Source: Escherichia coli (lineage in GTDB: Bacteria > Pseudomonadota > Gammaproteobacteria > Enterobacterales > Enterobacteriaceae). From it: a stretch of DNA of 64,000 nt. Under the pieces are notes generated by a model, which worked only from the letters and a program-made list of their open reading frames with translations, was not told the DNA's origin and made no database searches. Where the stretch lies: the NCBI RefSeq assembly GCF_024223415.1, contig NZ_CP100500.1. One strand, 5' to 3'. This document shows, piece after piece, positions 24,259 to 57,047 of the stretch (position 1 is the first letter of the stretch; each line of letters begins with the position of its first letter). A program made the translations under genes and the position numbers.

Positions 24259-24264
24259 CTTGTC

Positions 24265-24678
24265 TCAGATGGTTTTCAGTATGCGATCGATGTCGCCGTC
24301 ATCGCCCTGGTTTGTGCCATCGTATGCCATGCCAGCTGATACGGCTTTCGGGCTGTGCATGTCCATAAAGTTTTCAAAGGCTGAAGTAAGCTCTGGTGCA
24401 ACCTTCGGGCGTTCCTGCTCTATGGTCATGCTAAGGATGCTTTTAGCCGTACCAACATCGATACAAGGCACGTTAGCCATTGCACGTAACAGCGGCTGGT
24501 AGTCGTCAGATTCATGAAGCGCCATAATCGCATCAGCGCGCGGCTTGTCCTGTTCTTCCAGTTTGTTGAGTCGGTGTATGGCCTCGTAGGTTGATAAACC
24601 TCTGTCAGCCATTGCCCGCGCTTCGGCTTTAAATTTACTCGCCAGCGGTAGCTTCATGATACTTTCATTCGTTGCCAT
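24265..24678 (-). CDS. Hypothetical head-module protein (137 aa)
   Basis: ORF directly downstream of the D-like gene in the same operon; acidic C-terminus; no recognisable domain. Confidence 0.5.
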   Translation of the reverse strand: MATNESIMKLPLASKFKAEARAMADRGLSTYEAIHRLNKLEEQDKPRADAIMALHESDDYQPLLRAMANVPCIDVGTAKSILSMTIEQERPKVAPELTSAFENFMDMHSPKAVSAGMAYDGTNQGDDGDIDRILKTI

Positions 24679-24690
24679 CGTTCCCCCTGC

Positions 24691-25026
24691 TTATCGTGCC
24701 AGCGGCTGAACGGATACGCCGGAACCCGCAAAGGCGGCGCATTTTTTCGCATCGGTGTCGACGCTATCAGGCCAGTTAACGGCGGCAATATTGAATATCC
24801 CCGTTTTGTAACACTGTGCTGATTTCTGCTTTGACGTGTCCACGGGGTGCGAAGTCAGATAAACAGCTTTGCCAGATTCCTGACCATCCCACGCCTTAAA
24901 CTCGCCATTGTCTGCCAGCATCAGCGGGGTAAATTCCTGAATAACGCCAGCATCAGCGGCAAAATGTACCAGCGTCGTGGATACCTGCTGGCTGCCTGAA
25001 AATAACTCAATGTATGGAGCGTCCAT
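24691..25026 (-). CDS. Head decoration protein, lambda gpD-like
   Basis: 111-aa ORF with gpD-like motifs (TPLMLAD..AWDG..KTGIF..WP..AAFAGSG) and lambda D size. Confidence 0.75.
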   Translation of the reverse strand: MDAPYIELFSGSQQVSTTLVHFAADAGVIQEFTPLMLADNGEFKAWDGQESGKAVYLTSHPVDTSKQKSAQCYKTGIFNIAAVNWPDSVDTDAKKCAAFAGSGVSVQPLAR

Positions 25027-25037
25027 AGAATCCCCCG

Positions 25038-26093
25038 TTAAGCAATTTTGACGGTAACAAATTTGCGAATATCTGCCGGTACCGGCTGCGGTGCGCTGTG
25101 CGTCTGCACGTACTCAATCGCCGGATCGCCGTCCTCAATCCAGTTTTTCGGGTAGTACATGTTTTGCGTTGCGCCCGTTCTTACCGCTTCCTGATCCATA
25201 ATCGCACCATATGCCACCAGCCCTTTATTGTTGGTGTTACCCAGGACCAGCAAATCAGGCTCAAGGAAATATTTTTCGGTGCCGTCGCTGTCAGTGTATT
25301 TGCCGGAATAGACGATAAGGGCCAGATCACCAAGATAGCCTTTAAAGCTCACCACTTCGCCCAGGTTTTTACAGGCCAGCTCGGCGGCGGATTCTGACCC
25401 ACGGGAAAGATCGTACAGTTCACGGAATTTTTTAAAGCTGCGTAATGTGCGCCATACCTCACCGCCCATAATCATGACGTTGGCGGGGCAACCTGCCTGA
25501 TCAGCATAAAGCTCGATGTCATAGATTGGGTCGTGCATGTCTTTATCCTGCTGGGACCATTTTTTACCACTGGCCTGCTGTATGATGCAGTTTTCCGGTA
25601 TTTTCCAGTCGATTTCATAGCGTTCTATGCCTTCGCCCTCAATGATGTTTTTTCCGGTCGTTACCGCATTCACCGCCAGCCATTCAACACGCGCTTTAAT
25701 GGCGTTTACCTGGCGGCGCATGTTGCCAGTAATCAGGCGCATACGGCGATAGGTTGGGTCGTTAAGCTGTGCCGGATCTTCTCCAGCCATGCGCATGATG
25801 GTCTTTGTTGGATCGATTTCGTGCTTTGGCTTCATGTAGCCTGGTTTAATCGTGCTGGTTTCGTACCCTTTATCGCGCTGGACCTGACTACCCACCATAG
25901 GAGAACAGAACGCAGACATCGTAACCTCTTCAATGTCCAGGGTGTCCAGCATGATGTTTTGGGTGTTGAAGGTCGCCACGTTCGGGAAAAACAGCGTGGT
26001 AAACAGCGGACTAAATTTAAATTCCGAAATATCCCCGCGATTCAGGTACGCGAAAAGCTGGTTAGTTGTAAGTGCCGTTGCTTTGCCTGTCAT
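25038..26093 (-). CDS. Major capsid protein, lambda gpE family
   Basis: 351-aa ORF with many lambda gpE identities (PGYMKPKHE, DPTYRRMRLI, VVSFKGYLGDLALIVYSGKY, VLGNT, YPKNW..GDPA, SAP). Confidence 0.85.
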   Translation of the reverse strand: MTGKATALTTNQLFAYLNRGDISEFKFSPLFTTLFFPNVATFNTQNIMLDTLDIEEVTMSAFCSPMVGSQVQRDKGYETSTIKPGYMKPKHEIDPTKTIMRMAGEDPAQLNDPTYRRMRLITGNMRRQVNAIKARVEWLAVNAVTTGKNIIEGEGIERYEIDWKIPENCIIQQASGKKWSQQDKDMHDPIYDIELYADQAGCPANVMIMGGEVWRTLRSFKKFRELYDLSRGSESAAELACKNLGEVVSFKGYLGDLALIVYSGKYTDSDGTEKYFLEPDLLVLGNTNNKGLVAYGAIMDQEAVRTGATQNMYYPKNWIEDGDPAIEYVQTHSAPQPVPADIRKFVTVKIA

Positions 26094-26299
26094 TATTCAC
26101 CTCCGTGAACCTGATTGATACCCAGCGCCGCACGTAAATAGGTGCGCACCTGCCAGCCTGTTGACGGCTCAACCATCGCCAGCGGATCAAGTCCTGCCGC
26201 AATGCCTGCTTTTACATTCTGCTGGTGGCGTTCCTTGAGCGCCTCCACGATGTCGGGGCTTATGTAGACCGTCACCCCGCCTTTTTTCTCTTCTGCCAT
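26093..26299 (-). CDS. Hypothetical protein translationally coupled to the capsid gene (68 aa)
   Basis: ORF whose stop overlaps the capsid gene start; no recognisable domain. Confidence 0.45.
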   Translation of the reverse strand: MAEEKKGGVTVYISPDIVEALKERHQQNVKAGIAAGLDPLAMVEPSTGWQVRTYLRAALGINQVHGGE

Positions 26300-26508
26300 A
26301 GTCAGAAATTCCTCTTTGACTTAAAAAATCATAACTGGATGTTCATCCAGTCCTGATTATAATCATGATTGCATTTTGTGCAATAATGTTGAGTTGTGTT
26401 GCAAATTATGAAATGATTATCCCGATCATGTGTGTCAGTGCACCATAAAAAACCTCGTATACAAAAGCCCGATAAGCCCCCTGTGACCTTATCGGGCTTT
26501 TTTTAGGC

Positions 26509-26532
26509 GTAAAAAAGCCGGATTGCTCCGGC
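26509..26532 (-). terminator. Rho-independent terminator after the PerC-like gene
   Basis: Minus-strand hairpin GCCGGAGCAATCCGGC followed by a T-run. Confidence 0.5.
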
Positions 26533-26539
26533 TGTGTGC

Positions 26540-26812
26540 TCACTTCTGCGGGTAGTTGCGCCATATTGCTTTGCCAATACCAGCTATCCCCATTTGTTTT
26601 TCAGTGCGATTAACTGACCTTTTCAGAGCGCCTAAATCATCCGGCGGCTCCGGTGGCCTCTGTGCCTTCCGTGAACATTCCAGCCGTCGCATTGCCACCT
26701 GTGCGCGTTCCTTGTCTGTCTCCACCAGCATCATCACTTCACCCCATCGCGCGGCCGCCCTCCGGTAAAATCCTTTCGCCTCCAGTTCCTCCGCTATCCG
26801 GTCATGTACCAT
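26540..26812 (-). CDS. PerC-family transcriptional regulator-like protein
   Basis: ORF 26540..26932; likely start MVHDRIAEELEAKGFYRRAAARWGEVMMLV, resembling PerC-family proteins; assignment from memory of the family. Confidence 0.5.
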   Translation of the reverse strand: MVHDRIAEELEAKGFYRRAAARWGEVMMLVETDKERAQVAMRRLECSRKAQRPPEPPDDLGALKRSVNRTEKQMGIAGIGKAIWRNYPQK

Positions 26813-26822
26813 CGTCACCCCC

Positions 26823-27233
26823 TCAGAACGGAATATCATCACCGTAAGGGTCATCGCCTCCCGCTGGTGGCTGATTACCCTGTGTGCCTGTGGTTTTGCG
26901 TCTGTTCCCGCCAGGACGTGCCGCACGGGCACTGATTACGCTGTCTGCGATGACCTGCCAGCCCTGCCGCGTTTCGCCGTTCTGGCCTGTCCACTGGCTT
27001 ACCTGCATGTTACCCGCCACGCTCACCAGTTCGCCTTTGTGGTGTCTGGCCAGTGCGTCGGCCTGTCTGCCAAACGCCAGGACGGATAACCACATCGTCG
27101 CCGTTCCGTCATCTGCCTGGCTGCATGGCAGGGGAACCGCCATACTCGCCATCGCCATTTGTGTCCCTTTGCTGGTCTGTTTTGTCTGCGGGTCGTCCAC
27201 CAGCCGCCCGTAAGCCGCTATCTGTGCTGTCAT
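26823..27233 (-). CDS. Single-stranded DNA-binding protein (SSB)
   Basis: 136-aa ORF with OB-fold-like N-terminus, Gly/Pro-rich linker and the canonical acidic SSB tail ...GDDIPF. Confidence 0.8.
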   Translation of the reverse strand: MTAQIAAYGRLVDDPQTKQTSKGTQMAMASMAVPLPCSQADDGTATMWLSVLAFGRQADALARHHKGELVSVAGNMQVSQWTGQNGETRQGWQVIADSVISARAARPGGNRRKTTGTQGNQPPAGGDDPYGDDIPF

Positions 27234-27487
27234 GCTGTCTGCTCTCCGGTTTTAACATTGATGGTTGTCACCTGTTCCGCTCCGGCAATCTCCCGCTCTG
27301 TCAGCGTGGCAAAGTTTGCCGCCGTCGTTGTCATGAATGCGCTTATCAGTTCGGGATGTGCTTTCGCGTATCCTTCCCCCGTGTTGCGGTCGATGATTTT
27401 TATCGCCACCCTCAGCCAGTGCTCTGTAAGGTCAATGGCGCGGTTATGTGATTTCTTCTGATTGTTAAATTTTTCTGATGTGTGCAT
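27230..27487 (-). CDS. Hypothetical protein (85 aa) upstream of ssb
   Basis: ORF overlapping the ssb start by 4 nt; no recognisable domain. Confidence 0.45.
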   Translation of the reverse strand: MHTSEKFNNQKKSHNRAIDLTEHWLRVAIKIIDRNTGEGYAKAHPELISAFMTTTAANFATLTEREIAGAEQVTTINVKTGEQTA

Positions 27488-27529
27488 TTTTATTTTTACC
27501 CCCTCGTTTAAAAAGTTTTGAGTTGTGGT

Positions 27530-27770
27530 GCACCTCCTCTACCTCTCTACACAATCATCTTTCAGGTCAGTAATGGCGCGGCTTTCAGCGGGGTAGAGGG
27601 CTTTTTTGGCCCTCTACCCGCCATCTACCACCCCCTCACAAATGCCCTGAATTATGGTAGAGGGTGTAGAGGGCTTTTAAGTACCTTCTACCTGCCATCC
27701 ACCCAATCTATCCACATGAAATATATGTAATTATTTTCTTAAGGTAGAAGGGGTAGAGGGCTTTTGTCTA
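27530..27770. repeat. Iteron array; candidate replication origin of the island
   Basis: At least six copies or variants of GGTAGAGGG(C)TTTT and its complement CCCTCTACC in about 240 bp of non-coding DNA directly 3' of the primase gene. Confidence 0.6.
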
Positions 27771-27773
27771 AAA

Positions 27774-29522
27774 CTATAAAAACGCGTCGCAGTCGTCTGT
27801 TGTTGTCACGTTGGTTTGCGTAAACCCTTTAATCCTGCGCGTTATATATTCATGACCGTAAACTTTCGCCGCTGGCTTCATGGCCTTGCTGAACTCAGCC
27901 ACGTTCAGCGGTTTGCTCCTGCCTGCATACGCCATAAACGCCAGATAGACGCGGTAAAGGCTGTTTCTGGTCGTGTACTTCACTGAATCGCCACCGCCGC
28001 CCATCATCAGGCCACGTGCTTCCTCCAGAAAATTCAGGAACTGGCAAAACTCAATAACCGGATCCGTCTGTTGCTTTATTGCCAGAGCTTCATCACCGTC
28101 TCGCTGTTCAATGAGTAAAGCCCGTGCCTTTTCAGGGTCGGCAAAGTTCGCCAGCAAGCGGCGGATAATGACAGGGATTTCAGCCGCGATCTTTTCCGGT
28201 AGCTCCCTGTCTTTTTCTGCCTCGCTTACGATGTTATCGAACCGGAATATCACCCGACGACGTGACACGCCTCCTGCCCGTTCGGTGAATATCATCGGGT
28301 TATTATTGGTTGCCAGCACAACCGCCCTGATTACCGCCGTGAATCGCTTTTCATATTTCGGGTTGATTTCCACGGGGTCGCCGCCCGTGATTTTCTTGAT
28401 GCCCGTTCCTTCGCCTGTATATTTCGGCTGGTCTGCCAGGACAATAAGCCTACTCCCGACAACCTGCGCACGCCCACCAGCATCATCAAGCGATGTCATC
28501 TCAGCGCTTACCGTGTTCTGTTTCCCTGCCAGAAGGCTGGCTATGTGTGTGAATGTACTTTTACCGCTCCCGCCGTCTCCGGTGGCCTCAATAAACATCT
28601 GCCAGTCGTACCGGTTCGCCATAATCATGTACAGCGCGGCACATATACGCATCATCTTGCGCGGGTCTTTTCCGGCAGCGTGATCAAGCCATTTATGAAA
28701 GTTTGGCGCGTTGTCGCGGATATTCTCACCTGGTACTGGCGGCGTGTACTCAATGCCGTTGTGTGTGGTGATCCAGTTCTCCGGCGTGTGCGGGGAAAAT
28801 TCCCCCGTTTTCAGGTCAAGCGCACCATTGGCGAACGGCAGCAAATCGCCGGACGGCTCGCCCATTGGTTCGGCAATAACTTTTAACGCTTCCACGGCGT
28901 TACTGATTACGCGCTTGCTGAAAGTGGCCCTGTGCTCTGAATAGATCGCCACCATTTCGCGGCTCAGTTCCATTGTGCTGACCGGACACCATACCCCGCC
29001 GCGCCATACGTGAACGATTTCACTTTCCAGATGCACACAAACGCCATCAAATCGACCAGCAAGCATCTGTGCGCGCTCACTGTCTGCCATTTGTGCCAGT
29101 TGCGTATTTTTCTGCTCCGGCATGGTAAGCCCTGCGGCAATATTTTCACGCTCAGCATTCAGATAGCGCCGCCAGTTTTCACACTTCTGACCGTGCATTC
29201 CTTCAGAGTAAAAATTCGCATCCTGAATATCTGCCGCCGCCAGCTTCTGACCAATCTTTTTGGTCTCCACTAAATCCAGTTCTCCGGCCTGGTACAGCCT
29301 TACGCGTTTTTTTCCATCCGGAACAATTTTCAGCGCATCAAGTTCAGCAAGCTGATTTGGCCCAAGCCACACAGGCGGCACATTATCGCCGGATGCGGGA
29401 CCGTCCTTCTCCTGCCACTGTTGTGCATGCGACCAGGCATCACTACCCGCAAAGATAATTACCTCTGTGTCTTTGTGTTTTATTCCGCGTGGCTGTTTTT
29501 TTACGTTCGGTGCCAGTTTCAT
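27774..29522 (-). CDS. Phage/plasmid primase-helicase (P4 alpha family; D5_N plus P-loop NTPase)
   Basis: 582-aa ORF; Walker A GDGGSGKST; architecture and size typical of satellite or PICI Pri-Rep proteins. Confidence 0.85.
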   Translation of the reverse strand: MKLAPNVKKQPRGIKHKDTEVIIFAGSDAWSHAQQWQEKDGPASGDNVPPVWLGPNQLAELDALKIVPDGKKRVRLYQAGELDLVETKKIGQKLAAADIQDANFYSEGMHGQKCENWRRYLNAERENIAAGLTMPEQKNTQLAQMADSERAQMLAGRFDGVCVHLESEIVHVWRGGVWCPVSTMELSREMVAIYSEHRATFSKRVISNAVEALKVIAEPMGEPSGDLLPFANGALDLKTGEFSPHTPENWITTHNGIEYTPPVPGENIRDNAPNFHKWLDHAAGKDPRKMMRICAALYMIMANRYDWQMFIEATGDGGSGKSTFTHIASLLAGKQNTVSAEMTSLDDAGGRAQVVGSRLIVLADQPKYTGEGTGIKKITGGDPVEINPKYEKRFTAVIRAVVLATNNNPMIFTERAGGVSRRRVIFRFDNIVSEAEKDRELPEKIAAEIPVIIRRLLANFADPEKARALLIEQRDGDEALAIKQQTDPVIEFCQFLNFLEEARGLMMGGGGDSVKYTTRNSLYRVYLAFMAYAGRSKPLNVAEFSKAMKPAAKVYGHEYITRRIKGFTQTNVTTTDDCDAFL

Positions 29523-29818
29523 TTTTTACCCCTGAATACGTTAAGCATCTTTTTTATTTCCTGAATATTGGCGCGTGCTTTCTCCCTGCTGGTTGGTTTA
29601 CTGCGGGGCGCTGCCTGTACCAGAGAAAAATCACGCCGGAACTGATAAACAGGCATCACGCAATCATATTCGTAGCCTTCACGGCGGTAAGTGATGCGCC
29701 GTTCCTCCACGCCTTTAATCGTTACCGTGCCGCCGTACTGGTCGCGGTAAATATCGCCGTTCATAAATTCAGGCCGAGCGGGGCCGCTGGCATTAACGCC
29801 AGTATTTTTCATTCCCAT
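29519..29818 (-). CDS. Hypothetical protein (99 aa), translationally coupled to primase
   Basis: Stop overlaps the primase start by 4 nt; basic protein of unknown function. Confidence 0.5.
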   Translation of the reverse strand: MGMKNTGVNASGPARPEFMNGDIYRDQYGGTVTIKGVEERRITYRREGYEYDCVMPVYQFRRDFSLVQAAPRSKPTSREKARANIQEIKKMLNVFRGKK

Positions 29819-29822
29819 ATAA

Positions 29823-30065
29823 TTAAATTCCGTTTGTGTGGTGTTTTAATTCGTCAATTTTTTCTAATGCTTTGTTTATCTTGCTGGTGGAAATATCCAG
29901 CAATTCAGAAATAGCAAATATAAGTCTTGCCGTTGATTCATCTCTTTCGTTGTTTGACAGCAATTGAAACCACACGTTTGTAATTTCAATTGCCGAATTA
30001 TTATAGGTTATTGCACTGTTCATGTATTCCGACACCTCTGCAAGCGAAAGTTTATTATTCTCCAT
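29823..30065 (-). CDS. Hypothetical protein (80 aa), AT-rich accessory gene
   Basis: Locally AT-rich ORF within the minus-strand operon. Confidence 0.4.
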   Translation of the reverse strand: MENNKLSLAEVSEYMNSAITYNNSAIEITNVWFQLLSNNERDESTARLIFAISELLDISTSKINKALEKIDELKHHTNGI

Positions 30066-30246
30066 AACGTTCTACCCTCTCATCAATTAACCACAGTGCA
30101 ACACTTCCTGACAGTCTTGCCAGAAGGCCAGCTAATGCGGATATATCATCATCATTTAATTTATTAGGGTACGCTTCAAGAAGTCTGCAAATAATTTCGG
30201 TTTGGTGGGCGCGTTCAGCGGCTTCGTGTAATGTAATTTCCTTCAT
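30055..30246 (-). CDS. Hypothetical protein (63 aa)
   Basis: ORF overlapping its neighbours by a few nt (operon). Confidence 0.4.
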   Translation of the reverse strand: MKEITLHEAAERAHQTEIICRLLEAYPNKLNDDDISALAGLLARLSGSVALWLIDERVERYGE

Positions 30247-30431
30247 TAATGCACCTCTTTTAATTCATACACTGCTGAAATAATGACTTGTGATAAGCCA
30301 TATTCTGATGATTCGCTTCTCACCGCAGCAATAGCCGTCTGAACATTAACAGCCTTCACATTCTGAGCGATACCAATTGTGTGGCCTAGTGGGTTAACAG
30401 CTCGGGCAAATACACGGAAGGTTTTAAGCAT
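30246..30431 (-). CDS. Hypothetical protein (61 aa)
   Basis: ORF overlapping its neighbours (operon). Confidence 0.4.
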   Translation of the reverse strand: MLKTFRVFARAVNPLGHTIGIAQNVKAVNVQTAIAAVRSESSEYGLSQVIISAVYELKEVH

Positions 30432-30789
30432 GGCGCACCCCCTGAATAACCTGATATCCGCAACTGGTCAGCAATTCGATAAATTCCGGCAGAGTGCCAA
30501 AACAGCAATCAGTGCGTAGCTGTTCGCAGGATACCTCAACGCCGTTTTCGTAATGGCTCACTATGCGCCCGGTAAAATGCGGATCATCATCGTGATGGCA
30601 CGTTGACGGTTTCATCAGCCGCGCGCGTTCCGCCAGTTCCAGCAATGCTTCAACGCTTCCGGCAATTGCACCATCCGGCAGGTGATAATTACTTACTACG
30701 CGTCCATTCTCTACATTGACCAGTAGCTGTCCGGTAAATTTCTCACGAAACTGAACGCGGTTAAGATCGGTAAGTGACAGGTTAATCAT
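30424..30789 (-). CDS. Hypothetical Cys/His-containing protein (about 122 aa)
   Basis: ORF track 30424..30831; ATG at 30789 overlaps the upstream gene stop (ATGATTAA); contains CHHDDDPH...C..CC, a possible metal site. Confidence 0.45.
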   Translation of the reverse strand: MINLSLTDLNRVQFREKFTGQLLVNVENGRVVSNYHLPDGAIAGSVEALLELAERARLMKPSTCHHDDDPHFTGRIVSHYENGVEVSCEQLRTDCCFGTLPEFIELLTSCGYQVIQGVRHA

Positions 30790-30979
30790 GGCACACCTCC
30801 TGACGAATACGGGCGGCGAATACAGCGACACAACCGGACGGGCAACGGTTACGCGCTTCGCGTTCTGTCCAGGCGGTCACGTGGATAATTTGAGATTCTC
30901 CGGCACTCAGTGCCAGAAAACGCCACACAAAGGCGGTTTGTGTGTGCGCAAGGCGTGGGGTATGCTGTGTTCCAGCCAT
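30782..30979 (-). CDS. Small protein resembling P4 Icd-like / Ash-family (host cell-division inhibitor-like)
   Basis: 65-aa ORF MAGTQHTPRLAHTQTAFVWRFLALSAGESQIIHVTAWTEREARNRC...; SD GAGGT 7 nt upstream; first gene of the leftward operon; family assignment tentative. Confidence 0.4.
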   Translation of the reverse strand: MAGTQHTPRLAHTQTAFVWRFLALSAGESQIIHVTAWTEREARNRCPSGCVAVFAARIRQEVCHD

Positions 30980-31069
30980 AATCGTTACCTCAATTAATGG
31001 TTTGGTTAGAAGCCCGTTGGTGTTCATAGCGCCAGCGGGCTTTGTCTTTTCATCGATTACCTCAATAAA

Positions 31070-31151
31070 GGTGTCAGCCACTATACTAGTAACAGGTGTC
31101 AGCCACGTCAATAGTGTTTTTCCATTTTCTTGTGTGTATACTGTCAGCCAC
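31070..31151. promoter_or_regulatory. Three direct repeats of (G)GTGTCAGCCAC in the divergent promoter region (candidate operators)
   Basis: Copies at about 31070-31081, 31095-31106 and 31141-31151, between the leftward icd-like operon and the rightward RHH gene; a TATACT -10-like hexamer abuts copy 3. Confidence 0.5.
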
Positions 31152-31172
31152 CTAATAACAAGGAAATCAGAT

Positions 31173-31352
31173 ATGGCAACGAAAGCAGTTAATGGAAAAT
31201 CCAAAAAACTTGAGGCACGAGTCCCCCATGCAATAGCTGACGCTTTAGAAAATTTAAAGGAAGAAGGCGAAAGCACTGGGCAATTTATCGTTTCGGCACT
31301 TGAAGGCGAGATCAAACGCCGCCAGCGCCGGAAGGCCAAAGAATCAGAATAA
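31173..31352 (+). CDS. Small RHH/Arc-like DNA-binding protein; candidate island repressor
   Basis: 59-aa ORF MATKAVNGKSKKLEARVPHAIADALENLKEEGESTGQFIVSALEGEIKRRQ...; SD AAGGA; transcribed divergently from the replication operon. Confidence 0.55.
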   Translation: MATKAVNGKSKKLEARVPHAIADALENLKEEGESTGQFIVSALEGEIKRRQRRKAKESE

Positions 31353-31400
31353 TCACTATCAGCGCCGTGGTGTGAGGTACTGCGGCGCATTGTTTTAAAG

Positions 31401-31601
31401 GTGATAATTATGAATAACCAAGAACTACAAAATAAAGCATTATCAATTATCATGCGCCAGCGTGAGAAAACCCGCAGGGAAATAAATAAGGCATTAACCC
31501 GCACTGAAAATCTTAAAGTTCCTGATAAGTTCGCCCTTGATCCTTTTGTCGAGAAATACCCTCGGCGCTTAAAAGCAAACAAAAACCGCCCACCTGGCTG
31601 A
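31401..31601 (+). CDS. Hypothetical protein (66 aa) downstream of the RHH gene
   Basis: Short ORF on the same strand as the RHH gene, before a plus-strand terminator. Confidence 0.3.
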   Translation: MIIMNNQELQNKALSIIMRQREKTRREINKALTRTENLKVPDKFALDPFVEKYPRRLKANKNRPPG

Positions 31602-31758
31602 CAATCCACCAGCAAGCCAGGACACTGATCACATTGGCCACCGTGACAGGTGGCCTTTTCTTTGCCCGTTATCCGGCAATTGTGGCGCTTCGCCACACGG
31701 TTGATATAATCCCACTGCTCATATTCATTTTTTGCGCAGTAGGTTAATTGTTCAGAAA

Positions 31759-31787
31759 GGCGGCTCCTTATCGGGGCCGCTTTTTTT
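31759..31787 (+). terminator. Rho-independent terminator ending the rightward RHH transcription unit
   Basis: Hairpin GGCGGCTCC-TTATC-GGGGCCGC followed by TTTTTTT. Confidence 0.45.
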
Positions 31788-31928
31788 ATGTCTGAAAAAC
31801 CGCGATTTTGTTGTTTTTCAGTTTCACAAGGCCGAACGAAGCCCCGCCCCTGTTCGGGCGTATATCCAGTCTTCATGGTTAAATCTCTGTATTAGTGGAT
31901 GGGTGGCGGCTGTGTGCCGCCAGTCTTT

Positions 31929-32117
31929 TTAGTGAACTGCCTCGCAGCTTTCCTTCCATGCCAGAACTTCGGATAAAGACCAGCCAACGGAACGACCGCC
32001 CAGCTTACGCCGTGATGGGAATTGTCCGGCCTTTTCCAGGCGGTAGCGGCATGAGCGGCTAAGCCCTGTTAGCTTTTCGCATTCTTTTTCACGTATAAAC
32101 CGATCAGTGCTTAACAC
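31929..32117 (-). CDS. alpA: AlpA-family phage regulatory protein (excisionase/activator-like)
   Basis: 62-aa ORF ...KLTGLSRSCRYRLEKAGQFPSRRKLGGRSVGWSLSEVLAWKES, the AlpA HTH signature; adjacent to int. Confidence 0.8.
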   Translation of the reverse strand: MLSTDRFIREKECEKLTGLSRSCRYRLEKAGQFPSRRKLGGRSVGWSLSEVLAWKESCEAVH

Positions 32118-32409
32118 TATTGCCCCCTTTCGTTTCTTAAAGAGTTATTTCGTGTTCTATTGCGTTGGTATGTGTCTGATTGTGTCAGGGTGATTCAGAG
32201 TTGGCAAATGTTGGTGGCGGGTATTTTACAGAAACGGGGTTATTTTAATAAAAAACATTTTAATTCAGTATTATGCAAAGGCATAAAATCTCGTTTTATG
32301 CCTTTTTTCTCACTATTTAAAGCGTTATTCGCTAATGTATAAAAAACCAGTTGAGCATTAAAAATCAGCAACTTATAAATCTGTATACTTTTTGGCCTCT
32401 TGTTCGTGG

Positions 32410-32443
32410 TTGTTTCACGTTGTTGCGTATTGTTTCACGTTGT
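32410..32443. repeat. Two direct repeats TTGTTTCACGTTGT between int and alpA
   Basis: Identical 14-mers at about 32410-32423 and 32430-32443 in the int-alpA intergenic region. Confidence 0.4.
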
Positions 32444-32491
32444 ATCTGTGCACTTATCCAGTATGCGCATACTGAAAAAACACGAAAAAAA

Positions 32492-33742
32492 TTATTTTCT
32501 TCTGGTTACTGGTAGCGTGGTTACGTTTTCATGTGCTCCCGCCAGTATCTCCAACCGCTCCACCCACATATCCAGCGCATTGCGTTTCGCATCCAGATAA
32601 CGGGAATGATTATAAACTCGCTGCATTCCTGGCATCTGGTGGCCTGTAAGCTGCTCCACGACGTGAGGATCCACGCCTAAATCGTTCAGCATCGTTGTAA
32701 AGGTGCGCCGGATGTCATGCAGTGACCAGTGAGGGTGTTTAAGCCTCCTGTGCGCTAATCTTCCATACTGCGATACGCTGGCCTCCTGTTTCACTTCCCC
32801 CAGCAATAAGCCCGTGTGCCTGTTCTGCTCCACCAGCTGCGTGACGAACGGCAGTATCGCTTCCGGTATGGGCCGGAATATGGCTACCTTCGTTTTGCTG
32901 TGCTCCTTCGGAACGGTCCATAGCATTTCGGTAAAATCCCACTCCCCGATCTCCGATAGCCTCAGTTCTACTGTCCTGGCTCCGAAGACAATCAGGAGGC
33001 GGATTAGTGCGACGTAGTAAGGGGAAAATATTTTTTTGTCCAGTGCCTGCAATAATTCGCCAAGTTCTTTGTTACTTAAGACACGCTGACTTATATCCGG
33101 TTTTTTCCCAACGTCAGCAACACTCATATCATCAAGAACGTTGCTGATTGCATAGCGCCGCTTCCGGCAGAACTTAAGCGCCTGTTTGCATGTCTGTAGC
33201 AGGAATCCGGCGGAAACAGGGGCTTGCTTTGCCACCCGATCAAAACAGGCCAGCCAGTGCCGTAGCTCGCATTTATCCAGCGGCATAGCACCAATCTGCT
33301 GTATTACGTGATTATTAAGTCGCCTTTTCAGGGCGATATAATCCACGCGGTTTTCCTTTACGTAATACTCAAGCCAGTAGGTAAGCGCATCGCCAACCGT
33401 TACAGGCTTTAACGCTTCCTGTACGGTGTAATTCATCTCATGACGTGGATTTTTCCCCTCAGCCAGCCATGCGCGGCACTGTGCGGCTTTTTCCCTGGCT
33501 GCTTTCAGGCTCAGATCAGGATAATTTCCCAGCTTAATCCGTTCCGGTCGTGCTCCCCTTCCCGTTCCGGCCCTGTAGGTGAAATACCAGGTTAAAAGGC
33601 CGCTGGTTGAATGCCTGACGGTCAGGTTTCCACCGTCATTAAGAAAGACTGTTTTTTGGGCGGGTGTGCCGTTGATTTTCCTTAGCTGTGTATCGCTCAG
33701 TTTGTTAAGTGCTCTGCGCATAATTTTGATTCCGGTCATCAC
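32492..33742 (-). CDS. int: Tyrosine recombinase/integrase (P4-like, DUF4102 N-terminus)
   Basis: 416-aa ORF; N-terminus ...LNDGGNLTVRHSTSG...WYFTYR; C-terminal catalytic region HDIRRTFTT...VYNHSRY; lies at the island edge next to attR. Confidence 0.9.
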   Translation of the reverse strand: MMTGIKIMRRALNKLSDTQLRKINGTPAQKTVFLNDGGNLTVRHSTSGLLTWYFTYRAGTGRGARPERIKLGNYPDLSLKAAREKAAQCRAWLAEGKNPRHEMNYTVQEALKPVTVGDALTYWLEYYVKENRVDYIALKRRLNNHVIQQIGAMPLDKCELRHWLACFDRVAKQAPVSAGFLLQTCKQALKFCRKRRYAISNVLDDMSVADVGKKPDISQRVLSNKELGELLQALDKKIFSPYYVALIRLLIVFGARTVELRLSEIGEWDFTEMLWTVPKEHSKTKVAIFRPIPEAILPFVTQLVEQNRHTGLLLGEVKQEASVSQYGRLAHRRLKHPHWSLHDIRRTFTTMLNDLGVDPHVVEQLTGHQMPGMQRVYNHSRYLDAKRNALDMWVERLEILAGAHENVTTLPVTRRK

Positions 33743-33767
33743 AATTAACTACACCATTAACTACACC
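33743..33767. repeat. Tandem AATTAACTACACC / ATTAACTACACC repeats, right arm (candidate arm-type sites)
   Basis: Identical to 22323-22347; located immediately upstream of the int start. Confidence 0.5.
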
Positions 33768-33889
33768 GATCGTTGCACAAAGGGCTACAACGTGAAACAA
33801 GCTGGAACAAGAAAAATCACAAATTTGTTTATAATCAAAAACATAATGCACAACCTGAAACATTATGAAACGGCAAAAAACACTAATTG

Positions 33890-47887: not shown

Positions 47888-48295
47888 GTGTCGAATCCTT
47901 ATCCAAAACAAGAGGTAACTCTCATGCTTCATACTGCCAATCCCGTCATCAAACACAAAGCCGGTTTGCTCAATCTGGCTGAAGAACTCAGCAACGTATC
48001 AAAAGCCTGTAAAATCATGGGCGTTTCGCGTGATACGTTTTATCGTTACCGCGAACTGGTCGCTGAAGGCGGTGTGGATGCGCAGATTAATCGTAGTCGC
48101 CGCGCTCCTAACCTTAAGAACCGTACCGATGAGGCAACTGAACAGGCTGTTGTTGATTACGCCGTCGCTTTCCCGACACATGGTCAGCACCGGGCCAGCA
48201 ACGAGCTGCGTAAACAGGGGGTTTTTATCTCCGACAGTGGTGTCCGTTCTGTCTGGTTACTCCATAACCTTGAGAATCTCAAAAGACGATACTGA
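47888..48295 (+). pseudogene. IS481-family-like transposase N-terminal fragment (HTH only)
   Basis: 135-aa ORF with transposase-type HTH (GVSRDTFYRYRELVAEGGVDAQINRSRRAP...) but no DDE catalytic domain. Confidence 0.5.
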
Positions 48296-48443: not shown

Positions 48444-49039
48444 GGTTTATTTCCTCTTTCTTTCCCGGCAAGAATTTATTTTAATCCGGAAGGATTATTT
48501 ATTTTCAGATAGGGACTCACATTAAACACGTAACATTTTAATTAATGCATGGCTGAATATGTATTACACAATGTCAGATATCGTAAAAGACCAGTGCAAT
48601 TCTATGTAAACTCTCTGACTGTTTATTTTATTTGTTGTTTCAGGGTCGGAACTCACCCTCAATAAACAACTGAATACGAGTAGATATTCATCGTCTGAGC
48701 TATATGGCTTTACACAATAGCCGACATGTCTTTTCTCAGTCAGAAATTTTACTTTTCCTCACTACGAAGTTGACGACTTCGATATGGGATAGACTCTTAA
48801 TTCAAGCAATTACTCTGCACAAGCATCAGGCAATCCAGCTCCAATATTTGTTATAAAATAATGCGTAACATTAATTTCACCAACAAAAAAAAGGTTTACG
48901 CTATCCCCTTGCCCTGGTATTTTACCATATTTACACCACACTTTTTTTGTATCTGGATCATTCTCTGATACGATTTTCGCCACTTGTTCCCTGGCCCTCA
49001 CTGTCAATGTTTTCTTAAACCTACCCCCATCATCATTTG

Positions 49040-49300
49040 TTAGGGAAAAATAAGAAAAAAATAATCATCTTCTACATTTGTGTATATTGATATATCCACC
49101 GCTACGTGCGGAAAAAAATCTGGGAGCCATGTAAAAACTCCATCATTTTCTGGTATTGCCATATAGTTTATGTAATGTTTACTTACAAGAGATTCATCTT
49201 TGTATAAATAAAGATAAGTAATTACGCATAAAACAACAATGATTATAATAGCAAAAATAAATATTATCATCTTTGATAGATTACTTGAGATAGCCAGCAT
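49040..49300 (-). CDS. Small membrane protein; candidate Rhs immunity protein
   Basis: 86-aa ORF with one strong TM helix, AT-rich, directly downstream of and overlapping the rhs 3' end. Confidence 0.4.
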
Positions 49301-52300
49301 CTTGTAAAGCCTTTATCGTTTTTTTATGCTCTGGATTAATATAATCACTACATCTATCTGAGCAATCTGTTGTTGATGGACATGTCAACCCATGGTCATT
49401 TACAGCCAAGTCTTTTTTATTATCTTCAATCATTTCAGAATGGGATAGCTTTACTTTTCTGCCGTACATACCGAACAGATTTAACCCGTAATCTCTAATC
49501 TCTTTTTCATAACCCAGCCCTTTCGCCGATCGGCTAACACCAGCGTCATTTAATTTAGACACTCGACAAAATGCCATACAATGGAAAAATTGATCAGTCC
49601 CACCTAAATTTAATCTCTTCATATCTTCATAAGTATCAGATAATATATCCCATGCTCTTTGATGGTTTAGTTGATCTTTTCTTCTTATTAGCGCTACATC
49701 TGCGGGACTTAACCCTAATGGATCAATACCATTCACCGGATTCAGCGGATACGCATACAGACTCCATCCCCCCTCCAGCCCTATCGGGTCCTGAGTGATA
49801 TACCGCCCCTGCAACGGATCGTAGTACCGGTTCCGGTTGTAGTACAGCCCCGACTCCTTATCATACTGCTGCCCCGGCAGCCGGTACGGCTGGTGCAGGT
49901 GATGCGGGTTCTCCTCATTAAGCTGGTTGCCCCATTCATCATATTCCGCGCTCCACGCCGTATTGCCGTCTTCACTGATAAGCGCCAGCGGCAGGCCCCG
50001 GTAGTCACAGTGATAAAGATGTATTTTTCGCTCAGGCAAATAAACCGGCTCTATCTGTGCCGCCAGCCGCTCCACCGTCAGCCCGCACTGCGCAAGCCAC
50101 TGGCGGCTTTCACTGCTCACGCAGTTTGCCCGGATTTCCCCCTCCAGCCTGTCCAGCAGCCCCACCAGTTCAGCCGGGAACACCACACCGTGGCCGTCTT
50201 CGCTCCCTTCCTGCTGCAGCTTCTCCGCCAGGCTGCGGCACTGCGCTTTCTCCCGTTCACCGTTGTCTGTTTCGATGCGGATGAGCGGCGCGAAGCTCCC
50301 CGGCTGGTATACCGTCTGGATACGCGTGGTGTCGGTCTGTACCGTCGTCAGCCGGTCGCCGTCCCATCCGTACCACGTCACCTCCGGTTTACGCGACAGC
50401 GACATCCATCCCGTCAGGTCACGCTCCCGCCGCCATACCCGTTTCGCCATTCGCCGTCCCAGCGGGTCACAGAGGTAGCGGCTCTCGACCAGTGGCTCGC
50501 CATGCTGTATCCGCGTGTGGAACACCAGGCGGTGCTGGCTGTCGTAGTGATAGTGGTGGGTCCGCTCGTCGTCCGTCCGTATCACACCCGCCGGGATGCG
50601 GTCCGTCTTCTCCGTCAGCCTGCCGTATTCATCGTGGCGGTAGACATAGTGCGCATCCTCCGCGATGCGGTTATCCGGCCACACTGTGAGTGTACTGTCC
50701 GGGTGCAGCTCCGGGTCCGGCAGCCGGTTTCCCGCCGGGTCGGTCGCATACGGGATGCGGATGTCCAGGTCCGGTGCGAGGGTGCGCACGCTCTCCAGCC
50801 TGCCCGTGGCGCTGTAGCCGTATTCCCGCGTCTGCCGGGGGGCGCTGATGCGCACCAGGTCGCCGTTGTCACTCCACCCGTAGTCACGGTCATATACCAG
50901 GCTGTTCAGGTGCTGGCTCTGTAACCGGCCTGCGGGGGTGTATGTGTTGGTCAGTTCATATGCGGCATTACTGCCTGCCATGCTGCCGAAGCTGCGCACC
51001 GTCTCCCGGTGCAGGCGGTCGCGCGTGAACTCCAGCAGCGGCGTCCCGCCCAGCTTCATTCCCGCCAGGTAACCGCTGCCATACGTCAGCCACTCCACCG
51101 GCGGCAGGCTGTCCGGCGTGACGCGGTTTGCCAGCCCCTGTTCGTTGTATGCGTGTTTCGTCTCATGCTGCCACAGCAGTTCCCCCGTCTCCGGGTTCTC
51201 CACCGTCTGGCGTTCGCCGGTCAGGCGGCCCTTATCGTCGTAGCCGTAGTGGGCAGCGACACGGTGGCCTTCACTGAGATGGCTGATGTCTGTCAGCCAG
51301 CCGTGGCCGTCATACTGCCACTGCTCTGCCGGTTCACCGTTTACCGTGCGGTGAGTGATACAGTCCGATTCATCGTAGTACCAGAGGGTGACAAGCCCCT
51401 CATCTTCACTCTGCGTGAGTTTTCCTGTCAGGTCATAATGATAACGCAGCGTCCGCCCGTCAAAGCCGCCCTGCTGTACCAGGCGGTCCAGCGCATCGTA
51501 ACTGAAATCACTGTGGCTGCCGTTCTCGTTAGTCAGACTGATGACACGTCCGGCAACATCGTACTCCATACTGCGCGTCAGCCCGCCCTGCGTGGTGCTG
51601 ACCGCCTTTCCCCACGCATCGTACTGTGTCTCGCTCCGGTTGCCGTCCGGGGTGATAACGGCAGTCAGGTCGCCTGCGGCGTTGTACTCATACCGCGTTT
51701 CATGGCCCTGTGCGTCTTTCACCGAGATTAACCGGCCACGGTTGTCATAGCGGCGGTAAAGGCTGATGCCTTCCTCGCGGTGGACCGCCGTCATCTGGCC
51801 GAAGCGGTCGTATTCATAGCGGGTCTGGTAGCCCGAGCAGTCGGTGAACGCCAGCAACTGACCGTAGCGGCTCCAGGTCATCTGCCGGGTGCTGCCCGTC
51901 GCATCTGTTGTCGTGGCCGGTAATTCACTGTGCGGATTATCATAAGCATGCCGGATGACGTCCCCGCTGCGCGATGTCTCCGATACCAGCCTGCCCGGTT
52001 CATCATATGCCCGGCGGCTCTCCAGCCCGTCCGGGGACACCACCGCCGTCAGCTGGTTCCCGTCGTTATAGTAAAATTTCGTCTCCCGCCCGTCCGGTGT
52101 GGTGATGTCCGTGATATCGCCGGACACCACATTCAGACCGTACTCTGTCCGCCGTCCCGCCGCGTCCGTCTGCGCCGTGAGCCTTCCTGCCGCGTCATAC
52201 CCGCTGTGCGTGACGCTGCCGTCCGCCAGTTCTTTTTTCACCACCCGCTTCAGCCCGGCCCCGCCTTCTGTATGCAGCACCTCACGCCGGTTCAGGCTAT

Positions 52301-53521
52301 CCGTGACGGTGATGCGGTCCTGCTCATACTGGTAGCGGTAACTCAGGCCTGCCGGGTTCAGCTGCTCCACCACCCGCCCGGTATCGTCGTAGCGGTAGCG
52401 CATCTCCGGCCTTCCCGCATAACGGTGCCCCACCATCCGGCCCGGGTGCTGCGCGTCATACGTGAAAGCGCGCACCTGCGTATTGCTGCGGTCATATACC
52501 GCCAGCAGTTCACCGGCTTCCGTATACGTGTACCGCACCAGTGGCGCACCGGGCAGGCTCTCCGGGTATGCCGGATCGTGCATCAGCCACACCGCCGAAA
52601 GGCGGATGCCCCTGTCGGGGCCGTATTCGGTACCGGGCAGTGTGTCGGGGAACGCTGAGGCTGAGAGAGGGCGGGAACGGTCAGAAGAAGATAGCGAAGA
52701 GGTGCGGGCCTCTTCCGCACGCTGCGCCTGCGTGGTCAGCACCAGACGGAACTCCCGCCCGGCACCGTCCGTCACGCCGGTGATTCCCCCGGCCAGGTCA
52801 CCGGCGGCCTCACGCCGGTGATTCCCCCGGCCAGGTCACCGGCGGCCTCACGCCGGTACGTCAGCGTCCGCCCGAAGCGGTCCGCCATCCCGGTAAGCAC
52901 CCGGTACGGCGGCAGCGGCGCTGGCAGTACGTCCTCAGCACCCGGCACCCGCTCAGACCACCCCAGTATCCACCACGGCCCCTGTGCGCTGTTGGTCGCC
53001 AGGTAAAGATGCGGGCTTAACCGGATATCCGGCGGCAGCGACGCCCACAGCCGTGCCAGCGTATGGCCGTCCGGCTGTGCTGCCTTACCACCGCGCACCA
53101 GCCACAGGGACTCGCTGCGGCTGTACACCGCCTCACCCGGCAGCAGCGGCTCAAAGTGAATGCTCCGTCCGCCGTTGTCGTTGAGTACCAGTGCATCATC
53201 GCGTAGCTGTAAGCGGATATCAGAAGGCGCTTTCCAGCCGGGGCCAAAAATCCCCACCGGTGCAGGCGTCTTCGTCCGGTAGCTGCTGTAGGTGCGGGAG
53301 AGAATGAACGGCAGCGGGCCGGGCAGCGCAAGGTCCGTCTCGCCGGGCAGCACCTTCGCCCCCAGCAGCGGATTTACCGGGTTGCCCGAAGTCATCCCGC
53401 CCGGACACACCGAGCACGCCACGCCAGTTGGCGCGCCAATTCTTACACCTGCCGAACCCTGGACAATGGGACCGCCATACTGAGTCATATCTCCCTGACG
53501 CGCCGCTGGTTTTCCGCTCAT
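49281..53521 (-). pseudogene. Rhs family polymorphic toxin gene frameshifted by a 38-bp tandem duplication
   Basis: ORFs 52772..53521 (PAAR-like N-terminus) and 49281..52775 (YD-repeat core, DPIGL, AT-rich C-terminal tip) are split by a perfect tandem duplication at 52772-52847. Confidence 0.85.
52772..52847. repeat. Perfect 38-bp tandem duplication inside rhs
   Basis: TCACGCCGGTGATTCCCCCGGCCAGGTCACCGGCGGCC occurs twice in tandem (52772-52809, 52810-52847), bounded by the 10-bp microhomology TCACGCCGGT. Confidence 0.85.
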
Positions 53522-53949: not shown

Positions 53950-56364
53950 TCACCCCGCAAACTGCCTGAACAGCGCCTTACCCTTAACCAGTCGCGCACC
54001 CAGCCAGCCGCCGAAAAGCGACAGCAGCAGCGCACCGCTGCACGGCAGAACAATCCACAATCGCCAGTCTGGCTCCCACGGAAAATCAAACACTTTCGCC
54101 TGCAACACTGCCAGCGCCGTTTCCGCACCAATTGCGGCCACCAGGCCGGAAACAAACCCAAGCATGGCGAACTCACACCACAACGTGGTACGCAGCAGTT
54201 TTTTCCCCGCACCGAGTGTGCGCCACACCACCAGCTCCTGATGACGCTGACGCATTCCCACCTGCACCTGTGCCAGCAACAGCAACATACCGCAGGCGGT
54301 GACCAGCACTACCATCACTTCCAGCGCCCGACTTACCTGCTCCAGCACCTGGCCGACCTGTTTTAAAATCGCGCCAATGTCTAACAGGCTAATGGTCGGG
54401 AACTGGCGGTTGAGTTGCGTCAACATGCCGTTGCCATTCTCCCAGCGGAAACTGGTAAGCCAGCTCTGCGGTTGCCCGTCTAATGCCCCTTCAGGGAAAA
54501 TAAAATAGAAATTAGGCCGCAGACTTTCCCAGTCCACTTTGCGCAGGCTGGTCACTTTAGCACGGAACTCCTGGGTATCGCCCATAAAAGTCACGGTATC
54601 ACCGAGGGCAACGTTTAAGCGTTTCGCCAGCCCCTCTTCCATCGACACTTCATCGGCTTTTGGCGGCCAGTTACCGGCGACAATCGGATTATGATCGGGC
54701 CGCGTATTTTGCCAGGTAAGATTGAGTTCGCGATTGAGCGCCTCATCTTCATTGCCTTCTGTCGGCTTGCCGTTAATCGCCGTCAGTCTCGCCCGCACCA
54801 CCGGATAAAACGATTCCGGGACTATCTGATGTTCCGCGAGGAACGCTTTTAGCGGTGCTACCTGTTCTGTGGCGATGTTGATTAAAAAGTAGTTCGGGCT
54901 TTCTGGAGGTAGCTGCTGCTGCCAGCGGTCGAGCAGATCGCCACGCAACACCAGCAGCAGTGCCAGCAGCATAAAGGAGAGCGAAAATGCCGAAAGCTGG
55001 CTTAACGTTGACCACGGCTGACGTAACAGGCGGCTAACCGCCAGGCGCAGAGGCAGCGATTTCAGCGTCATGCGGCGAAGTACATTCAGCAGCATCCAGC
55101 CCAGCACACCGCACAGCAAAGCCAGTACTACCGCGCCCGCCAGCACCGCCCAAAGCAGCATGCTGCCACCCATTAATCCGACGAGCAGCAGCACAACCAC
55201 CACACTGACAATCGGCAGATAAAACTTCAGCGGCCAGACGTTCGCAACCACATCATTACGTAATACGCGTAAAGGCTGCGTTGCCAGCAACAAGCGGTAT
55301 GGTCGTAGCCCCACCAGCAGCGAGATGACTGTCATGGTGCCAAGCGCCCACAGCCACGGCCAGAGGCTGGCAGGCGGTAGTGCAGCAGGCAGAACGGGCT
55401 TGAGCAGCACCATCAACACGTTTTCGAACAACAGGCCTATCGCCCCACCGGTAACGGCTGAAAGCGCCAGCACCATCAACCACTGACCGACGATTAGCTT
55501 ACGCAGTTGCGCACGCCCTGCCCCCAGCGTTTTGAGGATCGCCACCAGATCGTAGCGACTGCGACAGTAATGATTCATCGCTACCGCCACTGCTGCCACT
55601 GCCAGCAGCAAGGTCAGAAGCGCCGAAAGCAGCAGGAACTGTTGCGAGCGTTCCATCGATCGCCCCAGCGCGCCTTCGTCCTGTTCCAGACCGTACCAGC
55701 GTTGTTCGGGTTTAAGCTGAGGTAACAACCATTTCTCATAGCCGTCGAGTTGGTTCTCGTTGCCGCCGAATTTATAGCGCCAGTTGACCCGACTCCCCGG
55801 CTGCACGGCTCCGGTTTTATCGACATCCGCCAGATTCATCATCAGACGCGGAGCCATCTGGAAGGGGTTAAAACCGGAATCCGGTTCCTGAATCACTTCT
55901 CCGGCAATCCGCAAAGTGGCATCGCCCACGTCAATGGTGTCGCCCGTTTTCAGGTTAAGCAGTGCCATCAGGCGTGGGGCCAGCAATACGCTGCCCGCCT
56001 GCGGTTTCAGGCCAGGGGGATTGGTTTGCAGATCGCCATACATCGGGTAGATATCATCCACCGCTTTGACGTTCGCCAGCTGCGGTGTGTCGCCTGCAAA
56101 TGTCATGGTGGCGAAAGTCAGCTGCTTGCCGACTTTCAGGCCGCGCTTTTGCGCTTCCTCCAGCCATGCTTGCGGCACTTCGCGCGAACTGCGCAACGCC
56201 CGATCGCCCGCCATAAACTCCCGGCTTTGTTGGCTTAAGCCCTTCTCCATGCGATCGCTGATATTGCCCAGCGCCAGCACGCAGGCCACCGCCAGGCTTA
56301 GCGCCAGCCAGACAATTAATAGCGACGGCGAACGCCATTCGCGCCAGAACCAACGTGCAATCAT
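53950..56364 (-). CDS. ybbP: ABC transporter permease YbbP (FtsX-like)
   Basis: 804-aa polytopic membrane ORF overlapping the ybbA stop. Confidence 0.9.
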   Translation of the reverse strand: MIARWFWREWRSPSLLIVWLALSLAVACVLALGNISDRMEKGLSQQSREFMAGDRALRSSREVPQAWLEEAQKRGLKVGKQLTFATMTFAGDTPQLANVKAVDDIYPMYGDLQTNPPGLKPQAGSVLLAPRLMALLNLKTGDTIDVGDATLRIAGEVIQEPDSGFNPFQMAPRLMMNLADVDKTGAVQPGSRVNWRYKFGGNENQLDGYEKWLLPQLKPEQRWYGLEQDEGALGRSMERSQQFLLLSALLTLLLAVAAVAVAMNHYCRSRYDLVAILKTLGAGRAQLRKLIVGQWLMVLALSAVTGGAIGLLFENVLMVLLKPVLPAALPPASLWPWLWALGTMTVISLLVGLRPYRLLLATQPLRVLRNDVVANVWPLKFYLPIVSVVVVLLLVGLMGGSMLLWAVLAGAVVLALLCGVLGWMLLNVLRRMTLKSLPLRLAVSRLLRQPWSTLSQLSAFSLSFMLLALLLVLRGDLLDRWQQQLPPESPNYFLINIATEQVAPLKAFLAEHQIVPESFYPVVRARLTAINGKPTEGNEDEALNRELNLTWQNTRPDHNPIVAGNWPPKADEVSMEEGLAKRLNVALGDTVTFMGDTQEFRAKVTSLRKVDWESLRPNFYFIFPEGALDGQPQSWLTSFRWENGNGMLTQLNRQFPTISLLDIGAILKQVGQVLEQVSRALEVMVVLVTACGMLLLLAQVQVGMRQRHQELVVWRTLGAGKKLLRTTLWCEFAMLGFVSGLVAAIGAETALAVLQAKVFDFPWEPDWRLWIVLPCSGALLLSLFGGWLGARLVKGKALFRQFAG

Positions 56365-57047
56365 GCTTCCTCCTGCAACTGCCCGTTCACCAGCCGTAAG
56401 CAGCGGTCGCAGCGTGCCGCCAGTTGCAGGTCGTGGGTCACCATAATCAACGTGGTGCCATGTTCACGGTTGAGGGAAAACAGCAGGTCGGCAATTTTAT
56501 CGCCGGTCTGGCGGTCAAGGTTGCCGGTGGGTTCGTCGGCAAACAGCACATCAGGTCGACCGTTAAAGGCTCGTGCCAGCGCCACTCGTTGCTGTTCACC
56601 GCCGGAAAGCTGTGCCGGAAGATGATCCAGACGTTTACCCAGCCCTAACTGTTCGAGCAACGCTTTCGCTCCGTTACGACTTTCCGCGCTACTCTCACCG
56701 CGCAGCAGCGCCGGAAGCTCGACGTTTTCCAGCGCGTTAAGGGTAGGAATTAACATAAATGACTGAAAAACAAAGCCGACGTGCTTCGCGCGCAACTTTG
56801 CCCGCGCTTCTTCGTCCATATTATGTAGCGGTTGTCCCACCAAACTCACTTCGCCACTGCTGCCGTCATCCAGCCCGGCGAGGATCGCCAGCAAGGTTGA
56901 CTTACCCGATCCCGACTCGCCCACCAGCGCGATGGTCTCGCCGCGTTTGACAACCAACTCAACTCCGGTGAGGATGGAGAGTTCATGCTCCCCCTGACCG
57001 ACGGACTTCTTAAGATGATGAACTTCAACAATGTTTTCCGCTGGCAT
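56361..57047 (-). CDS. ybbA: ABC transporter ATP-binding protein YbbA
   Basis: 228-aa ORF with Walker A GESGSGKST, ABC signature LSGGEQQR and Walker B. Confidence 0.9.
   Translation of the reverse strand: MPAENIVEVHHLKKSVGQGEHELSILTGVELVVKRGETIALVGESGSGKSTLLAILAGLDDGSSGEVSLVGQPLHNMDEEARAKLRAKHVGFVFQSFMLIPTLNALENVELPALLRGESSAESRNGAKALLEQLGLGKRLDHLPAQLSGGEQQRVALARAFNGRPDVLFADEPTGNLDRQTGDKIADLLFSLNREHGTTLIMVTHDLQLAARCDRCLRLVNGQLQEEA

Follow-up and report, generated by a model that had tools for sequence, protein, structure and literature searches.

Very probable recent inactivation of an rhs gene at the Escherichia coli rhsD locus by slippage between 10-bp direct repeats

A 64,000-nucleotide stretch of Escherichia coli DNA (contig NZ_CP100500.1 of assembly GCF_024223415.1; here called the window) contains an rhs polymorphic-toxin gene that is read as two open reading frames (ORFs), which meet at a short tandem duplication. 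The question raised by this locus is whether the break represents a recent and accidental inactivation, one position of a reversible switch, a gene that still works in two pieces, or an artefact of assembly or sequencing. Analysis of the window with Tandem Repeats Finder (TRF) identified a perfect tandem array at positions 52772 to 52857, with a period of 38 bp, 2.3 copies, 100% matches and 0 indels. On the plus strand, the array is ordered as TCACGCCGGT followed by 28 nt, a second TCACGCCGGT followed by 28 nt, and a final TCACGCCGGT. The final repeat, together with those that open the two unit copies (52772 to 52781 and 52810 to 52819), constitutes the substrate for slippage. While the 10-bp repeat by itself is ordinary, the array also contains a 48-nt exact self-match at offset 38, which cannot arise by chance. 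Of the 18 gapped pairs of direct repeats (10 nt or longer, spacings of 10 to 60) in the window, no other is expanded.

Since 38 is not a multiple of 3, the duplication shifts the reading frame (+2) at codon 237, and a stop codon is reached 13 codons further on, giving a product of 249 aa. In silico deletion of positions 52810 to 52847 resulted in a single ORF of 1400 aa, with 0 amino acid differences from the KV7 protein WP_089518330.1. An earlier note on this DNA had claimed that a perfect 38-bp tandem duplication frameshifts the rhs gene and that removal of one copy restores a continuous frame; the TRF matches, the broken ORFs and the identity of the restored product to the KV7 protein confirm both claims.

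The surrounding genes place the break at the E. coli rhsD locus: ybbA and ybbP (53950 to 57047) lie upstream of rhs, and a ylbG remnant, mnmH, allS, allA, allR and gcl lie downstream. The locus shares with the clade I RhsD locus the ybbP-rhs-ylbG-mnmH order, the core, a variable tip delimited by DPLGL and a small downstream ORF, whereas its toxin tip differs from that of K-12 RhsD. No vgrG or T6SS genes are adjacent to the gene, whose upstream neighbor is ybbP; a vgrG precedes only the other rhs paralog, at yncH. The coordinates of the features are collected in Table 1. The toxin tip (142 aa) is without a confident Pfam family and gave only a weak match, to serum amyloid A (PF00277; E = 0.002). 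PF03527 sits just upstream of the tip, and homology of the window with the draft assembly L001, described below, stops at position 49710. From its position, the ORF overlapping the 3' end of rhs is a putative cognate immunity gene. In KV7, a helix-turn-helix pseudogene remnant of ylbG is annotated downstream of rhs, and its counterpart in the window is a 135-aa ORF at positions 47888 to 48295.

Table 1. Features of the disrupted rhs gene and of the 38-bp array (window positions, plus-strand numbering)
Feature	Position	Strand	Remarks
Disrupted clade I rhs gene, ybbP (rhsD) locus	49281..53521	-	Whole gene
ORF1, 249-aa N-terminal Rhs fragment	52772..53521	-	Marginal PAAR-like head, DUF6531 plug (residues 46-123), ~110 shell residues, 13-aa out-of-frame tail
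ORF2, 1164-aa remainder	49281..52775	-	YD-repeat shell, RHS core with DPLGL, C-terminal toxin
Variable C-terminal toxin tip	49281..49709	-	Residues 1259-1400 of the restored protein, beyond the RHS core
163-aa ORF, YbbD/PRK14710 family	48809..49300	-	Overlaps the rhs 3' end; KV7 annotation mapped; NCBIfam NF011298, 379 bits
38-bp unit, copy 1	52772..52809	-	10-bp repeat (52772-52781) and 28-bp spacer; TRF, sequence
38-bp unit, copy 2	52810..52847	-	Identical to copy 1; removal of either copy restores the gene
Third 10-bp repeat, TCACGCCGGT (coding strand ACCGGCGTGA)	52848..52857	-	TRF, sequence
9-bp inverted repeat inside the unit	52775..52806	.	CGCCGGTGA (52775-52783) and TCACCGGCG (52798-52806), recurring at +38; centroid hairpin

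To place the break within the protein, the restored product was compared with domain models and solved structures. It matched NF041261 (RHS element core protein) with 2721 bits over residues 1 to 1258, the curated cut-off being 2000 bits; ORF1 alone scored 515 bits, below this cut-off, as expected of a fragment. YD repeats (TIGR01643) were found in 6 stretches, and the Rhs-associated core was recognized at residues 1181 to 1258 (TIGR03696, 81.5 bits; PF03527, E = 1.4e-15). Near the N terminus, Pfam identified DUF6531 (E = 2.5e-18) and a marginal PAAR_motif match at residues 3 to 20 (E = 0.11). RHS repeats were detected by Pfam from about residue 320, and a weak first RHS repeat, at residues 209 to 243, spans the break. 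The best solved relative was Tse5 of Pseudomonas aeruginosa (PDB 8cp6; E = 9e-120), the cage chain of which starts at the position aligned to query residue 48. In Tse5, a PAAR-like fragment (residues 1 to 47), which is described as indispensable for secretion, is cleaved off between K47 and P48; the N-terminal plug, DUF6531, occupies residues 48 to 124 and precedes the barrel (PMC10684867). The E. coli protein resembles this T6SS Rhs effector in its short, putative PAAR-like head, DUF6531 plug, YD barrel and aspartyl-protease C-terminal plug; unlike Tse5, it carries a different toxin, has no adjacent vgrG at its locus and shows only a marginal PAAR match.

The earlier note had located the break between the PAAR-like N terminus and the YD core, which these alignments correct. 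The break, after residue 236, is predicted to fall inside the barrel, in the first part of the shell; the DUF6531 plug ends about 110 residues before it, and no natural processing site coincides with it. Because it lies inside the barrel and not at the natural cut, toxin delivery would probably be lost. The truncated product would comprise the head, the DUF6531 plug and only the first part of the shell; what remains of the shell, together with the toxin, would lack a proper start of its own. Judging from Rhs effectors of known structure, a cage broken here would not be loadable on the type VI secretion spike, and the gene would effectively be a pseudogene.

We then compared the locus with 5426 complete E. 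coli genomes from RefSeq, a set that lies apart from the window's own genome. The rhs segment was present in about 3520 of these genomes, in a total of about 5760 copies. In KV7 and about 3500 genomes, the single-copy form is found, in which one ACCGGCGTGA, 28 nt and a second ACCGGCGTGA follow each other. The nearest complete genome is KV7; leaving the 38 bp aside, 12 kb of its sequence show just 3 mismatches and one gap relative to the window. Five records (KV7, SCU-316, O78 strain 3, GPEC1446 and NCTC10444) have flanks that are 100% identical, and each is single-copy, since only 293 bp are spanned by the 331-bp query. A comparison of isolates of the same lineage had been suggested as a check in the earlier note, which offered a recent inactivation or an on/off event as alternatives; the single-copy state of KV7, which is otherwise so close, and of every record with identical flanks supports the former. 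Near-identical strains are intact, which in evolutionary terms dates the lesion to no more than days to decades ago.

Duplications of the same unit were identified with a 44-nt query (17 + 10 + 17) unique to the junction of copy 1 and copy 2, of which a single-copy genome matches at most 27 nt. The junction was present in 2 of the 5426 genomes, UTME-12 and VL40, in both cases in the ybbP-linked rhs gene, and both lesions are annotated by the NCBI pipeline as frameshifted pseudogenes. In each strain, both copies of the unit carry the strain's own allele (CTGGCCGGGGAAATC in UTME-12 and CTGACCGGGGAAATC in VL40, versus CTGGCCGGGGGAATC in the window), and the UTME-12 and VL40 alleles are present as 100% identical single copies in many other genomes. 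Because each carrier duplicated its own allele, and these alleles exist as single copies elsewhere, the sequences indicate that the duplication arose at least three times independently. Only one or two copies of the unit were seen among the genomes, with no longer arrays.

Searches for the protein products gave a similarly sparse distribution. The exact 249-aa product of ORF1 was found in one other assembly, GCA_900482235.1 (L001), and no record was found of the exact 1164-aa product of ORF2. The truncated product of the VL40 type, in which ORF1 stops 7 codons earlier than in the window, is also encoded in GCA_016855365.1, with a single contig on record. Among 5.8 billion proteins, searched with a query that had the frameshift tail at its end, there were only 9 short candidates, none with the 38-bp tail, a result that is uninformative for counts of events. 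Clusters of truncated products at 90% consisted mostly of contig-end rhs fragments from draft assemblies (1192 to 2626 members), from which no count was obtainable. Short ORFs with the ending ...DLAGKSPA or ...GDWPGKSPA were encountered in other complete E. coli genomes (P0001 and P0002); they apparently stem from other small frameshifts near the G-run in the 38-bp unit (a site equivalent to window positions ~52785 to 52795), due to either mutation or long-read homopolymer error.

The reciprocal event was identified with a 44-nt query composed of the left flank, one 10-bp repeat and the right flank. This 38-bp deletion junction was present in five genomes: BE311, F41, K99S and EC24.26, which share one allele, and 88-3493, which has a different core allele. 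Each of the five deletions affects the vgrG-linked rhs paralog, located at yncH-ydcD, and the annotation in every case is "frameshifted." Aligned with one another, the three forms differ cleanly by whole units (0, 1 or 2) and share their end points. Strain B41, which was picked up in the clusters of truncated products, encodes the BE311-type product as well (EIJ05428.1), and therefore this deletion behaves as a lineage marker. Duplications were seen only in the ybbP-linked gene (three alleles) and deletions only in the vgrG-linked paralog (two alleles), a split that, given five events, may be due to chance.

As a control, we considered another gapped 10-nt repeat of the same gene, GCCGGGCAGC, located in the rhs 5' region (window positions 53318 to 53351, with copies starting at 53318 and 53342) and with a period of 24. 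Its duplication junction was present in no genome, and an in-frame 24-bp deletion was present in two complete genomes, JNE141411 and HUM3355 (NZ_AP027256.1 and NZ_CP093317.1). The idea of a uniquely hot site was rejected, since the control repeat likewise shows slip deletions in these two genomes. Slippage at gapped repeats thus occurs generally, if at low frequency, in these G+C-rich genes, and the 38-bp site is unexceptional. We also considered the 9-bp inverted repeat inside the unit, which may aid misalignment and is statistically not distinctive. The single-copy sequence folds no better than shuffled sequence (z = -1.1 and -1.6), and the hairpin as an explanation of a slippage hotspot was dropped for this reason. 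The duplicated form folds far more strongly than its shuffles (z = -4.5).

Slipped misalignment is classical in E. coli, and we consider it very probable that slippage between the two 10-bp repeats duplicated the 38-bp unit, truncated the protein at 249 aa and inactivated the effector, in one lineage and very recently. During replication, the nascent strand would misalign between the pre-existing direct repeats, which lie 28 bp apart (ACCGGCGTGA on the coding strand), and the misaligned strand would copy the unit twice, so that the frame would be lost after codon 236. Slippage of the same kind could also remove the extra copy again. The slipped-strand signature proposed in the earlier note is supported at each step that the genomes record: besides the duplication itself, we observed the ancestral substrate with its repeats 28 bp apart in relatives, the reciprocal deletion, recurrence on three independent allele backgrounds and exact restoration of the frame. 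The physical mechanism would then be slippage, as judged from these products.

Slip indels at gapped short direct repeats in G+C-rich DNA have been described in Sodalis (Clayton et al. 2016; PMC4948707). The events in rhs resemble them in having a short repeat with a spacer, in the gain or loss of exactly one unit, in the G+C-rich context, in the presence of both products at one site and in the frameshift that follows when the unit is not a multiple of 3, and we found no substantive difference. In literature searches, we found no report of slippage at this E. coli rhs site. Clade I Rhs pseudogenes have already been recorded across E. coli strains (Jackson et al. 2009; PMC2935791); the lesion in the window is a specific 38-bp duplication and involves neither tip displacement nor IS insertion.

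Could the second copy be absent from the true genome, having been introduced by assembly or sequencing? Multicopy rhs genes do break or confuse assemblies, and contig-end rhs fragments number in the thousands. Nevertheless, the 10-bp repeat of a single-copy sequence is not long enough to produce a cycle in the assembly graph, and the flanks match the ybbP-linked paralog exactly, whereas the other KV7 paralog differs there by 7 to 15 positions per 250 bp. Equivalent duplications and deletions also occur in independent complete genomes, and the identical duplication is present in the L001 assembly, with 0 differences over 7.5 kb. L001 has complications of its own, joining as it does two paralogs. 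Its contig (UDHK01000008.1, positions 7500 to 12750) begins as the ybbP-linked rhs gene with the same 38-bp duplication and, from about 1.5 kb into the gene, is 100% identical to the vgrG-linked paralog, including the 3' core, the tip, a 132-aa ORF and the group II intron ltrA; the switch point lies within a stretch that is identical between the paralogs. The two rhs paralogs of KV7 are direct repeats 1.1 Mb apart, and a real crossover between them would therefore delete 1.1 Mb. The most probable reading is that this draft contig is a chimera formed across the rhs repeat; the alternative is rhs-rhs gene conversion. We rejected L001 as an independent strain, since its downstream half is the other paralog, and count it only as a second assembly, which may derive from the same isolate or from a nearly identical one. 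On this evidence, an assembly artefact is unlikely, and we give very little credence to a genome that is in truth single-copy.

A different possibility is phase variation, in which gain and loss of the second copy would be frequent enough to be useful and would turn the toxin off and on. Short tandem duplications are indeed unstable and are lost by RecA-independent slippage, deletion between 101-bp tandem repeats being readily measured (PMC7145654). In addition, the duplication recurred at least three times, and the stronger fold of the duplicated form might favor its loss. As in simple-sequence-repeat contingency loci, copy number shifts the frame, reversibly in principle. Unlike those loci, however, the site holds a long unit just once or twice and has no hypermutable tract. 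True contingency loci commonly show both states. Here, the off state is very rare, being present in only 2 of the 5426 complete genomes (~0.04%, against ~5760 copies of the segment), and all five relatives with 100% identical flanks are single-copy; a junction query made degenerate for the three alleles gave 0 matches in metagenome contigs, and each exact truncated product is on one contig on record. The same repeats also yield irreversible deletions, the similar behavior of the control repeat points to generic mutation and no dedicated device, and no case of reversion from duplication to single copy could be inferred from the genomes compared. Phase variation at this site is accordingly improbable. 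The same low standing applies to a low-frequency slip switch built on the gapped repeat (10 bp/28 bp) that clade I rhs genes of E. coli conserve in their 5' part, in which duplication would silence a costly toxin and precise loss would re-arm it, making such rhs "pseudogenes" recoverable weapons. Frequent reversion would allow a toxin gene to be set aside and regained at little cost, but the data give no such indication.

It is also conceivable that the split gene still works, with translation re-initiating on ORF2 and the two polypeptides assembling into a functional Rhs protein. The earliest possible start of ORF2 is a GTG that overlaps the TGA stop of ORF1 (GTGA; window positions 52772 to 52775), and a G-rich GGGGGA lies 9 nt upstream of this GTG; some ORF2 product could be made in this way, which speaks against a full loss. 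Moreover, natural Rhs effectors are cut into fragments that remain associated (PMC10684867). The natural cut, however, is at about residue 47 and not 236, the break lies in the barrel within the weak first RHS repeat, and ORF1 acquires a foreign tail of 13 aa. In VL40, the ORF1 stop lies 7 codons earlier, which argues that the overlap is accidental, and the annotation pipeline calls such alleles pseudogenes. We therefore regard a working split gene as highly improbable, and the duplication is best described as a sporadic, lineage-private inactivation by slippage, an ordinary kind of mutation.

For this genome, the consequence is that the rhs copy should be annotated as a pseudogene that arose by textbook slippage, which matters little beyond annotation. 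No paper describing the lesion site was found, whereas the type of lesion and the existence of Rhs pseudogenes were known; the recurrence in both directions is mildly notable. In E. coli rhs, this gapped repeat has slipped independently several times and in both directions, and another repeat in the gene has slipped too. Because such slips recur independently, some of the recurrent "frameshifted" rhs annotations reflect real biology and not sequencing error.

Elsewhere in the window, we observed an island of ~11.4 kb (positions 22323 to 33768) with an exact 26-nt direct repeat, AATTAACTACACCATTAACTACACCG, on either side. The best matches for window positions 20000 to 44000 do not include KV7, the genome closest to the window at rhs. 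The island encodes an integrase (32492 to 33742), a repressor-like gene, a DNA primase (27774 to 29522) and a major head protein (25038 to 26093), and it resembles a capsid-forming phage satellite (PICI/P4-like) located in the gcl/all region.
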